NCBI GenBank assembly: GCA_964016885.1
Contig: OZ024742.1
Span: 151,528,001-151,592,000, forward strand
Source: Eledone cirrhosa
Lineage: Eukaryota
Reading direction: 5' to 3'
DNA length: 64,000 nt
Shown here: piece by piece, positions 13,332 to 36,651 of the stretch
Numbering within the stretch: position 1 is the stretch's first letter
Layout: every line of letters starts with the position of its first letter
Notes under the pieces: generated by a model
The model's input: the letters and a program-made list of their open reading frames with translations, nothing else
Told to the model about the DNA's origin: nothing
Database searches by the model: none
Made by a program: the position numbers and the translations under genes

Positions 13332-13701
13332 ACCTTACTTACTGTGGTTACCACCGAATGAACCCAGGCCTCACACACACACATATATCTATCTATCTAT
13401 CTATCTATCTATCTATCTATCTATCTATCTATCTATCTATCTATCTATCTATCTATCTATCTCTCTCTCTATCAGACGTGTGTAACTTCGCGGAGAAGTT
13501 TCCGTTATTTTATGTAAGAAAAAAAACGTGAGTTTTTAGTTAAATTTTATATTATTGTGTAACTTGACCCCCCCTCCGTCTGACCTTCAGGTGGTGGGTC
13601 AACTCATTTTCGCCCCTACAGGGGCGAAATATTCGTTTGAAAAGTGTTTCTCCATCGAATTTAAAAAAAAAAAATATTGTAAAAAAAAGTTTGATTACGT
13701 T

Positions 13702-15600
13702 ATGAACGCTGCGTTCAGCGATAATGGTGGTGGAGAGGCGGTAAGACTACAAAGCTCGCAGTCAACATCGTCTTCTTCCCTAGATACTATAGAGATGGAA
13801 AGACGAAATGAAAATGTAAAAACAAATTCATATCCAAACAACACAAATGACACCAAACAGTTCAATGACAACAAAAATAACAACAACACTAATAATGATG
13901 ATAAAAACAACAATGACAACAACAACAAAGAAAAAAATAAAGACAACACCAATAACACCAGCATCAAAGACAACAACAACACCAACACCAACACCAAGGA
14001 AAATACGAATAATATCAACATCAGTGACAACAAGAATAACAACAACAATAACAACAATAATGACAACACCACCAACACGGATAATTCCACAAAGGAACCA
14101 AAAATCTCCTTTGCACAGGCAGTTCAAAAAAAGGAGGAACTGATATATCTCGACATAACAAATGCCGAACAACTTTTAAAGGACGCTAGGAGATATGTCA
14201 CTTTCGAAAAAAATGGTGCTTTCAGCATCAATTCTCCGGTAGAAATTCGCAAGGAAACTGCTCTCAAAACGATAGTTTTTAGGACAGTTTCCAATTCTAC
14301 CCGAAAACCAGTCCAATTGTCACAGAAAGAAATTGAACTGGTTTTCAAAAATTCAATGAATGATATTGCATTCATTCAAAGAAGCAAACTTTTTGGGAGT
14401 ATTTCGGTACTCATGAAGGATTAATTGACGGCCCAAAATTACTCTGTGTCGCCAATTGTATCCAACCTGTACACCTTTTTCCCTACATACATGGGAAAAA
14501 GGACACAAAAGATCAAAATCACGAGTGTCACACAAAAGGCGACCATATGGTGGATACTGTGCGGCTTCATTAATTTTGATGAAGACAGAATACTGTTAGT
14601 AGGAAAGTCCCCCAGAGATGTATTCAATGGAACTAGCATTGAAGTTCTGGTGCAAATGAGCCCAGAGCGAATAGCTATGATCCCACAACGTGTACTCCTG
14701 GACGGACTCACCTACATAAACTTTTCGGTTGAGGGTAGGCGGCCTTCATGTTACCATTGCTTTAGCAGGGGTCACCTGAGTGCTTCCTGTCCTAAATTAA
14801 TGAATAAAAAAAAGGCTCTTCTGCCGATACCCATCAAAACAACACAACCACCAACACCACCACAACAACAACACCAACACACAAAAATAACCACAACAAA
14901 CACAGTCCCACCCAACCCCACTCCACCTAAAACCACTGCAAAATCACATACAGACACAACAGCTCCCCAAGACATACCCCTCCCCAATCACACAGACGAT
15001 ACAACAGTGAAGACGAGGGAGAACCCCATCGCTCGAAAAAAGAAAGAAAAGACATCATAAAAGCAAAAAAACAGCAAACACTACCACAAACATACAACCA
15101 CCAACACAAACAACAAAAACATCACAAACAAAACCCCCACCTCCTGAAAACAAAATACCTACAACAAAACGAAAGCACACACAAGAACTACAGACAAAAA
15201 CAAACACAACACAAGAAAATTACACTTACACTTACATAAACACTGAAAACAAAACACTAATGGAGACCATCATGAACGACCCTTCGGTGAAAACCGAAGG
15301 GAAAACTTTCGCCCACTCTATTAAAAATAACAAAAAAACTGAACCTAAAACTGATTAGGGTCCCTATAAAAACTTATAGGTCCCTAAAAGAAACATTTGA
15401 GAAGGATGTGGGGAATTCCTGCGTGAAATCACTTAACCGCGTCCTTCTCAAATGTCTCCCCACCCAGACACCCCCATCCCACCAGACCCCACCCCACCAA
15501 ACATCTCCGTCCCCACCCCGCCGGAAACTACCACCCATCCAGACAACCCCTCCAACACCCCCATGGAAATCGTGCGGCCTGGTCCCCAGGAGACGAAGGG
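13702..15600 (+). pseudogene. Tx1 ORF1 (Asn-rich, CCHC knuckle), internal stop at 14422 and frameshifts
   Basis: ORFs 13555..14424 and 14425..15060; VEGRRPSCYHCFSRGHLSASC. Confidence 0.85.
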
Positions 15601-15640
15601 TGAGTGATCTCTTTTCCTCTTTTAACTTTTCAGCACCAAC

Positions 15641-32944: not shown

Positions 32945-35900
32945 ATGACCTCACTCAGAATAGGAAGCATAAATGCGCGTGGCTTGGGGTCGTCATGGAA
33001 GCAGGGCCACCTGCTCAACGACCTCAGGTCACTAAACATAGATGAAGTGGCCATCAGCGAGACCAGATCTCCGAAGCACGGGCCTTCGCCACGATCTTCG
33101 GCGGCTACGATGTGTACGCATCTCCCAGCCGTCCGGGATCGGGGGGAGGAGTCGCTGTGCTTTTTCGGAGAGGTTTGGATCTCGCCATACGGGCCATCTT
33201 CCTGGACCCAGAAGGTAAGTTGGTGGTGCTGGACGTGACCAACGGAGACGGGCAAGCTTTCAGGCTAGTGGCCGTCTATGCCCCGACAGGAGCAGGGCGG
33301 CCTGATTTCTTCCGGCGTCTGGAGACCTTTCTTGGAACGTCCCGCTCATTAGTGTTAGTGGGTGACTGGAACGGGATCTTAGATGCACGCTGGGACTGTG
33401 TGGGATTAGCAGATAGGGGAGGAGGGTGTGAGAGTCTCATCAACCTGCTCAGGCGTTTTGAACTGTCTGACAGGTACCGATTGGATTTCCCGAATGTGCC
33501 AATGTGGACTTGGACAAATCGCATAGGGTCATCCAGATCATATCTAGATAGAGTATTTTGTAGGGAAATAGATAGGTCTAGCATAGGCTGTCCACAATTC
33601 AAGATAGTCAGCTACACGGACCTCAAATTCGTGATCTGTGTGCTTGACTTAGATAGGCTTCATAGACGAGGACCCGGCTACTGGAAGCTAAACGTGTCCT
33701 CATCAGCGCACAAGGCCTACAGAGACCGGATTAGCGAACTAGTTAAGCGGGCGCTGACGGGGGATATCGTCAACAACAAGTGGTGGTTTGCTCTGAAAAG
33801 AGCAATTAGAATAGAGTCCATTAGGTTTAGTAAGGCTTTAGCAATAGAGAAAAATAGAGCAGAGGGAGAATTAGTTAGAAAATTAGATGAAGCGCTTAGC
33901 AAAGGCATCGCGACCGACGTACTTGCGGCGAAATTGGCCCTTGACCAATTCTTCAATGCAAAGCACAAAGGCTGCGTTGTCAGAGCTAGGGTGCGTGCTA
34001 TCAGGCACGAGGGGACGAAAGCCGTTCAATGGGCCCGAGTGGCGGAGGCGCGTCGTGGCAACAAAGCCACGATCCGGTCTTTGGTGGACCACGACGGGCG
34101 TACGCTACTCGATCTCGGAAAATGTGTGAAGCTTTTCAGCGACACTTCGCTCAACTGTTCGGGGACCGCGGCGGGCCGGATCGAGGGATGGACTTTAGTG
34201 TCTACCTCGACGGACTGCCGCGGCTCTCGGCCACTGAGGCGGAGTGTTGCGAAAATCCGATAACAGCCGCTGAAGTACGGGAGGCAATGACTGGCTGCAC
34301 AAGGGGTAAATCGCCTAGTTTCGATGGTCAGCCCTATGAACTTTACGTACAAATGCCAGACTTGTTCGGAGGCCTCTTGGCGGACGTCTACTACAACTGG
34401 AAACAGAACGGGAGAATTCCCAGCTCTGTGAGCCGAGGAGCGGTGGCACTGCTGAGAAAGGATCCGAATAAGGGGGATAACATAGATAATTTTAGGCCCA
34501 TAACTGTGCTAAACACAGAGTTCAAGATTTTGGCCAAGCTGCTAGCAAAGAGGTTGGCGCTTGTTGTTGGTGGTCTAGTGGGAGAGGCGCAGACATGCGC
34601 TATTCCCGACAGATCCATCCACGACAAACTCCACCTCATGCGATACATCGTAGAGAGGGTAGCTAGGGAACCTGGCACGGGTGGGTGCTTGATCAATTTA
34701 GATCAGTCGAAAGCTTTCGATAGGGTCGACCATCGTTACCTAGCGGCAGTCCTGAGGGCGGCTGGCTTTGGGCCCGTCATCAGAGGCTGGATCGCTGCCA
34801 TGCACAGCGACATCTGCTCTGTGGTGAGAGTGAACGGTCACCTTTCGGAACCGTTCAACATCATGTGCTCGGTCCGCCAAGGATGTCCCCTCTCGTACCT
34901 CTTGTACGTATTGACTCTCGAGCCATTACTGCACAAACTGGAGACATTGAGAGGGGGGGGGGGGCGCGAACTAGGATGCGGAAGATCCGTGTCAGCATAT
35001 GCGGACGATGTCACCGTAGTGGTGTCGAACGCCAAACACATCGAAGAGATCGGCACTACACTAAGAGAATACGAAGCGGTGACAGGAGCAATGATCAACC
35101 AGGAAAAGTTAGTGGGCCTGCAGCTCGGCACCTGGAGAGGCAGGTCCATGCCGTCTAACAGCGTCGTCGAGCGCTGGACGGACGGACCGGTTAAATTGCT
35201 ATGGGTCTGGTTCGGTCCGGACCTCCAGACGGACAAAAACTGGGACGAGGTGACCAGCAGGGTGGCTTCTCTCACCCAGAAATAGGCGGAGAGGAAGCTA
35301 TCCCTGAAAGGTCGAGCGGAGGTGTCTAACGTTTACATTGCGTCCGTTATCTACTACCGCCTGACCGTCGTACCTTGTCCTAAGCCCCGCCTGACTGCGC
35401 TGGAGCGTTTGCTCTTTCGCTTTTTGTGGAAGGGACGCGCTCCGATGGTCAGGCGGTCCATCTGCTGTCAACACCCGCTACGTGGAGGGCTGGGCTTGCC
35501 GCGGCTGATGATGCGCAGACACGCGCTCTGGCTACGACATCTCCACCTCTTCCTCGACGGTGATCAGGTGTGGTCGCCGTTTGCTAGACGCGTCTTTCCC
35601 CAGCTCGTCTCCTTGACGGAGCTGCAGTCCTGGGTCAAGCGAAGACCGAGAGAGAGCGCTTGGAGACTGGAATGTCTTCAGGTGCTCACACCCCTCGACC
35701 ACTCGGGCAATGTGATCGGTGGAAACTCCACCTTGGCGTACTATAGAGGATTAGTGGAGGGGAAGAGCGACGACGTACTTGGGGAAACTTTAGGCGTCCA
35801 CGAAAATCAACTAGCCAATCTCTTCGGAAGAACTTTCGGGCCGGGGCCTATGGACAACTTCCAGAAATACCTGGCCTGGCAGTGCTACCGAGGAGCTTTG

Positions 35901-36365
35901 CCATTTCGGGATAACCTCTACAGGCATGGAGGTGCCGTCAGCCGGGCATGTCCGAGATGCGCGCAGGGCGACGAAACCGTCCTGCACGCACTCGTCCAGT
36001 GTCCGAACATTGCTGACTTGTGGGTTTATGTCGAACACCTGCTGTCGCGTGTAGGACGGATCCAGCTATCAGCTGAGTCCATCGCGAGGATTGCCCCGCC
36101 CTCCTCCTTTAGCCGGGAAGGATAGGCAGTTTTTATCTATCTGGTGGCCATGGCGAAAGAGATAGTATGGTAGACACGTTTGAAAGGGCTGAAGACGAGC
36201 ACTTACCTCTTCGGTGATGACCTGATTAACCTTTTCAAATTTCATTTAAAAAAGAAAATCAGGGTAGAAAGGGAAGTGCTCTCTTCCCAGCATTTTGTTG
36301 AAAGATGGGTGAGAGAGGCAAGAATGGCCCGAGTGAATGGGTCTACTCTGAGTATGTGTCTATAA
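32945..36365 (+). pseudogene. Tx1 ORF2 APE endonuclease + RT, frameshifts and stops
   Basis: MTSLRIGSINARGL, GGVAVL, YAP, GDWN, TWTNRIGSSRSYLDRV, TDL (catalytic His position altered), GPGYWKLN, VRQGCPLS, YADD. Confidence 0.92.
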
Positions 36366-36651
36366 ATTAAAGGTGGAAAACTGGGAGAGGGCACTTGCCC
36401 TGGTGGTCAGGGTCACTGTGGCTTTTTAATGGGCTTTCTCCACGAATGTCCCTAGGAAGTCTCCCCCCCCCCCTATTGGTGAATTTTTTTCATTGTTCTA
36501 TTATTACATCCTCTGTTTCTTGTTTTTTACACGCAGAAATGCCCATTTGTACCGTCCTGTATTGTCCTGTACTGTGCTTAATGTCTACTTTATGTAAACC
36601 CTTGTGGTTAATAAAGAAAGCATTATTATTATTATTATTATTATTATTATT

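Follow-up and report, generated by a model that had tools for sequence, protein, structure and literature searches.

Tx1 retrotransposons that insert into microsatellites are known for repeat units of two, three and four nucleotides, namely Kibi in (TC)n, Koshi in (TTC)n and crocodilian families in (TTCC)n and (TTTC)n (PMC4494074). Other Tx1 families reside in DNA transposons, Xenopus Tx1L in the piggyBac-type Tx1D and crocodilian Tx1-Mar in Mariner-N4 (PMC4494074). An octopus repeat annotation finds L1-Tx1 (80 families, 56 Mb) and Dong-R4 elements abundant, and the words 'target' and 'microsatellite' are absent from its supplement (PMC13282606). Here we analysed a stretch of 64,000 nucleotides from Eledone cirrhosa (contig OZ024742.1, positions 151,528,001 to 151,592,000), hereafter the window, together with related loci throughout the genome. 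The window carries copies of two sister families of Tx1-like long interspersed elements (LINEs), and these families, C/A in (ATT)n and B in (TATC)n, occur by the thousand in their own repeats. A third family, D, lies outside the window in a miniature inverted-repeat transposable element (MITE). The initial annotation of the window had proposed a switch between a tri- and a tetranucleotide target and knew of no Tx1 family specific for these repeats; novelty of such a switch is not supported, the crocodilian (TTCC)n and (TTTC)n families already being close to Kibi and Koshi (PMC4494074).

Sister families and their targets across the genome

Different microsatellite targets had been proposed from the window copies, and genome-wide junction counts confirm them and show them to be mutually exclusive. 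Exact matches of the 3′ ends were counted over 3.0 Gb, a procedure free of score bias. Among 7,811 exact C/A-type ends, 6,256 continue NN-ATTATTAT and 3 have TCTAT within 4 nt; the latter were considered as a new subfamily, which was rejected as they are ordinary C copies. The 6,155 exact B-type ends gave 5,382 TCTAT matches (up to about 410 ends may count twice), which puts the ends followed by TCTAT at about 5,000-5,380, and no ATTATT. At most 64 B-type ends lie in (TC)n, and the 17 distinct sites viewed are mixed TC/TA/TATC tracts. The target preference at the 3′ ends is thus at least 80% in both C/A and B, which passes Kojima's 20% rule (PMC4494074). The targets themselves differ from the (TC)n, (TTC)n and (TTYC)n of Kibi and Koshi.

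For the junctions of individual copies, repeat-free head and tail queries returned 588-2,148 candidates, from which the best 30 of 40 scored loci were taken, each set including the window copy. All 30 C heads and all 30 A heads follow (ATT)n, while B heads follow (TATC)n in 23/30 cases by rule and 27/30 by eye, with 3 after (CT)n only. A repeat run of at least 10 nt is present at 25/30 C tails and 18/30 B tails. Since truncated copies are unable to carry a parental 5′ repeat, their 5′ junctions are informative on the target. From 60 loci per family we dropped 19 B and 29 C copies running past the locus edge and 5 B and 4 C copies with internal deletions. Under a strict rule the truncated end adjoins the family's own repeat in 22/37 cases for B and 12/27 for C, and the repeat of the other family in 0/37 and 0/27, so that the test named in advance as able to overturn the proposal, the 5′ junctions of other copies, came out in its favour. 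Target duplications of 12-17 bp with non-repeat anchors, starting at the element end and without extra repeat units, were seen at four off-target B and C sites (L016, L021, L029, L048), all of them near-cognate sequences. Taken together, the own repeats at truncated 5′ junctions and these duplications indicate that the repeats are pre-existing targets and not only tails. Of 58 C/A 3′ tracts, 15 enter antisense Dong-like tails, 6 a head resembling a short interspersed element (SINE) and 5 the next element; in the 15 Dong-like cases the tract must have been present beforehand.

The terminal motif shared by this lineage has at least 27,520 exact matches in the genome, about 13,000 of which fall outside the B, C/A and D patterns. 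Further subfamilies carrying it (L072, L075, L065, L258, L231, L467-L494; L043, L099, L114) belong, where readable, to the TATC or the ATT side.

Domain order and reverse transcriptase (RT) trees support membership of the lineage in the Tx1 clade of the L1 group. Pfam PF03372, PF00078 and PF13966 on the D ORF2 and on window pieces give an N-terminal apurinic/apyrimidinic endonuclease (APE) domain, the RT and a C-terminal zinc finger, and A, B and D have a separate ORF1 with a CCHC motif, as in Tx1 elements. In a FastTree analysis of the RT, the lineage and its unnamed relatives are sister (99) to a group with NCBI proteins called 'YTX2' and 'transposon TX1 149 kDa', these names being annotation transfers and the tree being built from rows other than the type Tx1L and true L1. 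With vertebrate TX1-named proteins the lineage shares only 36-38% RT identity, and the nearest named homologue of the RT region, from Argonauta hians, is 68% identical. A midpoint-rooted DNA tree of the 3′ part of ORF2 (38 rows) separates ATT and TATC clades with 100/100 each and places D as sister to a TATC subfamily (97/97); RT trees that include outgroups also unite D with B. Metagenome scans yielded no loci at first and then 33 distant ones, the 8 viewed giving no usable target; the ESM Atlas returned generic names only and protein cluster look-ups no useful names.

Copies and tracts in the window

The Tx1-like copies and their flanks are as follows.

208..4175, minus strand: copy A, an A-type 5′ untranslated region (UTR) and ORF1 joined to a C-type ORF2; endonuclease region deleted, 3′ end missing
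4176..4222, minus strand: (ATT)n tract at the 5′ junction of A, reading (AAT) on the forward strand
13386..13473, plus strand: (TATC)n, that is (TATC)22, 5′ flank of B
13474..19306, plus strand: copy B, full-length TATC-targeting element, disrupted by stops and frameshifts
14749-14790, plus strand: CCHC of B ORF1
about 15635-19076, plus strand: B ORF2
15971..15994, plus strand: YAP loop of the B endonuclease, AYAPSGTP, aligning with L1 YAPN
16206..16247, plus strand: B hairpin loop TWSNRSGTSRSYLD, equivalent to T192-D205 of the L1 endonuclease
19307..19373, plus strand: (TATC)n, 3′ flank of B, then (TA)n
30402..30423, plus strand: (TAT)7, 5′ junction of the truncated C/A-type copy
30421..30737, plus strand: 5′-truncated C/A-type copy, 90.6% identical to the C 3′ end
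30738..30797, plus strand: (ATT)20, 3′ flank of the truncated copy and 5′ flank of C
30798..36621, plus strand: copy C, full-length ATT-targeting element, disrupted by stops and frameshifts
31996-32037, plus strand: knuckle of C ORF1
33274..33297, plus strand: YAP loop of the C endonuclease, VYAPTGAG
33508..33549, plus strand: C hairpin loop TWTNRIGSSRSYLD
about 36362, plus strand: end of C ORF2
36622..36651, plus strand: (ATT)10, 3′ flank of C, then a short dispersed SINE-like repeat

The flanks agree with what had been read from the window by eye: (TATC)n stands on both sides of B (13386-13473 and from 19307) and (TTA)n on both sides of the truncated copy and of C (30402-30423, 30738-30797, 36622-36651), A and C share the junction TTATT|G, and the 3′ ends of B and C run into the repeat with no poly(A). 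The genome-wide counts show that this is not a matter of chance; by comparison, pure 9-nt runs begin at only 0.17% (ATT) and 0.10% (TATC) of window positions. B and C are homologous as had been stated (70.8% identity over 3.4 kb). The last ~12 nt of the B 5′ flank are a (TC)-rich variant common to unlinked copies and probably carried in the element RNA; the 5′ end of B probably lies ~12 nt upstream of 13474.

Copy A does begin right after (TTA)n (4176-4222, minus strand), as was claimed, yet it is no independent case because its ORF2 is of C type (94.4% identity to C over 1.8 kb). A-type copies match C at 91-95% from C nucleotide 2066 to the 3′ end and differ in the 5′ UTR and ORF1 (53% ORF1 identity over 184 aa). 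A and C therefore represent one ORF2 family, and A as a targeting family of its own was rejected; since they share a target despite their different ORF1, the target follows ORF2 and the 3′ UTR. Relative to the full-length member L196, the window copy A is without about 1.47 kb including the endonuclease. The exchange of the 5′ module between A (L191-L210) and C (L171-L190) resembles that of L1, and A heads agree with the window copy at 97-99%. An ORF2-length open frame is present in 0/20 long B, 0/20 long C and 1/20 A copies.

Elements and tracts of another kind lie between copies B and C.

23560-27200, minus strand: R4/Dong-like element ending in (TAA)n, with an open 1,141-aa frame
28115..28190, plus strand: (TTA)25 at the 3′ tail of an antisense R4/Dong-like element
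28191..30401, minus strand: 5′-truncated element with a restriction-like endonuclease and (TAA)n at both ends, which from its motifs we take to be R4/Dong-like

We infer that the block 28115-36651 goes back to a single (TTA)n tract into which one Dong-like element and two Tx1-like copies inserted; read in this way, (TTA)25 at 28115..28190 is probably the left part of the formerly single tract. The SINE-like repeat beside C (window 36652-36857; also L042, L044, L051, L057, L058) often starts where (ATT)n stops and itself terminates in (ATT)n, and it may be mobilised by an ATT-targeting LINE. Elsewhere in the window, the frames at 39355-40907 (minus strand) look by eye like a Penelope-type element with RT and GIY-YIG, and 58477-62778 is a very long degenerate (CTATTG/TTG)-type tandem array, open in several frames.

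Family D in a MITE

Family D was found through the shared terminal motif, accounting for 10 of the first 30 matches, six of them in one head-to-tail array. The genome holds 330 D ends and 302 D heads, counted with search patterns of unequal length. All 30 of the 3′ ends examined abut one and the same base of a 72-bp unit; the 30 heads likewise abut a single base, a different one. This unit is part of a ~225-bp (about 215-230 bp) MITE with 3,490 exact left ends, which has the hallmarks of a piggyBac-type MITE, namely TTAA at both ends, short inverted termini and no open reading frame. Among 30 MITEs viewed, most have a single unit and are empty. Next to D the unit count varies from under 1 to over 20 per side.

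The sister relationship of D to a TATC subfamily makes it likely, as far as the trees can tell, that D arose by a switch from (TATC)n to a near-cognate site in the MITE. It is improbable that D reflects no switch at all but a single ancient insertion, multiplied as a passenger of the MITE or through recombination within arrays, a view that would account for the identical junctions (30/30), the few truncations (302 heads, 330 tails) and the head-to-tail arrays. At 12 D-bearing loci, however, the MITE arms are 84.7% alike, near the 87.0% of empty MITEs, while D itself is 98.1% alike, which argues for many independent insertions; the range of units per side also speaks against such a passive spread, as does ORF2, which is open (1,149-1,153 aa) in 4/9 D copies.

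Six D copies stand head to tail at C1:4223354-4259391 (L241-L245, L263-L268) with 1 to about 20 72-bp units between them, similar trains occur on C10 (40.72-40.75 Mb, 41.38-41.43 Mb), and the listed D copies on C1-C3 cluster near contig ends. At L294, L299 and L303 the MITE has grown into a minisatellite of 7-21 or more tandem 72-bp units, and no D head lies nearer than 1.5 kb. Upstream of two D heads (L394, L396) stands just one unit, and beyond it, in place of the MITE end, an unrelated repeat that both loci share and that by eye is LTR-like (long terminal repeat). Among contigs of X1, X4, X5 and X6 compared with the D 3′ end, X6 gave a B-type end and the other three gave pieces with 0-1 differences from D; such contigs are uninformative on transcript ends.

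Endonuclease, RNA and the choice of target

Identity between B and C/A is 66% in the endonuclease and 77% in the RT, and between B and D 83% and 90%, the D and B endonucleases differing at 41 of 239 positions. The initial annotation had named the hairpin loop, which aligns with the hairpin of the L1 endonuclease (L1-EN; PMC1950540), as the putative part that recognises the target. The two loops are present as it quoted them, but the S/T difference at the third position is polymorphic inside B (7 S, 10 T, 1 I), leaving only S/I202 and T/S204 as fixed between B and C/A. Of these, T/S204 was discarded as a mark of the target, Q occurring in L258 and S in other B-side loops (targets unreadable). 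The hairpin as key to specificity is further weakened in that other TATC subfamilies vary at the T/S position, that D shares the B loop and has another target, and that a loop graft did not move Tx1L specificity onto L1-EN (PMC1950540). B, C/A and D all differ at residues 23-24 and 122-125 (D numbering). Residue 122 aligns with the L1 asparagine equated with Y98, a specificity position of R1Bm (PMC1919474), its match to N118 being our own reading; as a D-specific residue it was rejected, F being present in D and in the TATC subfamily L258, and within the 122-125 loop W123 is seen in D alone. A single-sequence fold of the D endonuclease (pLDDT 39.7) was too low to use.

We think it rather probable that divergence in what the endonucleases nick brought the sister families to their distinct pre-existing targets, which are (ATT)n in C/A, (TATC)n in B and a single base of the MITE in D. 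What is observed in this respect are exclusive targets at both junctions, one orientation, duplications, the lack of poly(A), one deep split and the position of D on the TATC side. The APE domain would nick the bottom strand at the T|A step of a short motif that reads T^ATTAT, T^ATCT or T^ACTCT on the top strand. The element RNA, ending a few repeat units past AATAAA, would anneal to the nicked end, so that reverse transcription would start at the element boundary. The 5′ junction would then come from another nick, 12-17 bp from the first, together with pairing of co-transcribed upstream target; co-transcription of the target is backed by upstream variants common to 24/30 B heads and more weakly by the D proximal unit. 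Specificity may be spread over several surface loops (23-24, 122-125 and hairpin S/I202 in D numbering) and not lie in the hairpin alone. The endonuclease identities leave room for a change in nicking, an endonuclease-domain swap between SART1 and TRAS1 moves the target (PMC7265360) and the Tx1L endonuclease reads about 10 bp (PMC1919474). Thus the proposal of a switched endonuclease specificity holds in that the families differ in target, while the endonuclease, rather than RNA-target pairing, as the part that switched is what our model presumes. An Rfam scan of 4 full-length loci turned up no ribozyme at the 5′ end, its matches all being sub-threshold and in repeats, and the folding of the 3′ ends does not surpass that of shuffled sequences (z 0.84, -0.75, 0.64).

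Several observations weigh against endonuclease-led targeting. The hairpin of D is identical to that of B despite the different target, F122 in both D and L258 means that residue 122 does not sort with target, and with one ATT/TATC split any correlation between residue and target amounts to a single event, which makes the residues only candidates. An L1 with a changed nicking profile, the LTx chimera, still integrated at T-tracts, pointing to RNA-DNA pairing (PMC1950540). Moreover, 15/37 B and 15/27 C truncated junctions miss the strict repeat rule; several of these show short matching duplications and some none, the latter perhaps reflecting later deletions or RNA-borne tails, and some (L055, L327 and L377 among them) pair a long 3′ repeat with a non-repeat 5′ flank, as an RNA-borne tail would also yield.

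It is possible, if rather unlikely, that targets are inherited through RNA, the three endonucleases being relaxed T|A nickers, the site being chosen by pairing of read-through target sequence in the RNA ends, and one off-target insertion of an active copy, such as D in the MITE, founding a family with a new target. No poly(A) is copied though AATAAA lies only 7-9 nt from the end, the junctions of all three families begin at a T^A step, B heads share non-repeat upstream variants (15/30 CTACC, 9/30 a TC variant plus TATC) and D retains the B hairpin. There is precedent in the pairing that aids priming in SART1 and R1 (PMC7265360) and in the LTx chimera. The 29 nt proximal to D are uniform in 26/30 cases compared with 10/30 in the first 3′ unit (p=5e-5), but the comparison with the next 5′ unit (17/24) falls short of significance (p=0.19). 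Four readable off-target sites lack extra repeat units, the few B-type ends in (TC)n are in mixed tracts, and the 41 endonuclease differences between D and B likewise count against guidance by RNA. We consider unlikely, and somewhat more so, the full form of this idea, in which a relaxed T|A nickase is directed by read-through target sequence at the two ends of the transcript and a single mis-insertion reprogrammes the family, in D from microsatellite to MITE minisatellite, with its hairpin unchanged; if true, it would represent a natural RNA-reprogrammable APE integrase also able to spread minisatellite units. That the repeats are self-made tails, with 5′ repeats due to elements stacking into one another's tails, is very improbable and already largely refuted. 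Head-to-tail stacking is indeed frequent (heads after another Tx1-like tail in 12/30 B, 10/30 C and 12/30 A), but the other heads, like the truncated copies, are still found in the repeat of their family, and many of the tracts form the tails of elements unrelated to the lineage, Dong-like or SINE-like in kind. Some duplications have non-repeat anchors, and stacking into the correct tail itself requires targeting.

The lineage bears on whether endonuclease or RNA-DNA pairing underlies target change in APE elements, an unsettled matter in which the L1 loop-graft and SART1 papers point both ways. Its ends, split over three exclusive targets, provide a natural series for target change, and the closeness of B and D in endonuclease and RT, together with the open ORF2s in young D copies, renders this pair suited to separating effects of the enzyme from those of the tail. 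In the literature outside most subscription papers, Repbase, Dfam and Fig. 3 of PMC4494074, no Tx1 element came to light that is described as targeting (ATT)n, (TATC)n or a MITE minisatellite, and no target is given for cephalopod Tx1 elements. The kind of element and target switching as such are already known, and the present case is an extension with a good test case and no new system.

R4/Dong elements have a TAA target. C/A shares its (TAA/TTA)n tracts with them: the window holds two Dong-like copies, and C/A often lands in Dong-like tails. In this mollusc lineage both Tx1-like and Dong-like elements thus accumulate in common (TTA)n tracts. The restriction-like endonuclease and the opposite tract orientation, however, are Dong features, and RT identity is 30% over part of the domain; judged from the sequences, the shared tracts are convergence and not kinship. 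As in SART1, TRAS1 and R1Bm, APE-based targeting of short repeats would be aided by pairing of RNA and target (PMC7265360, PMC1919474), but SART1 is of the R1 clade and copies its poly(A) tail, whereas the elements described here belong to another clade and copy none. Like Tx1L in Tx1D and Tx1-Mar in Mariner-N4, D enters one site of a non-autonomous TTAA-flanked DNA transposon; unlike them, it is nested in a microsatellite-targeting clade, uses a 72-bp tandem MITE unit and forms head-to-tail arrays. The closest likeness in the microsatellite families is to Kibi, Koshi and the crocodilian Tx1 elements, APE-RT LINEs of the same group with related families on different unit lengths, which in vertebrates occupy pyrimidine tracts while the octopod families described here use the A/T-rich targets (ATT)n and (TATC)n.

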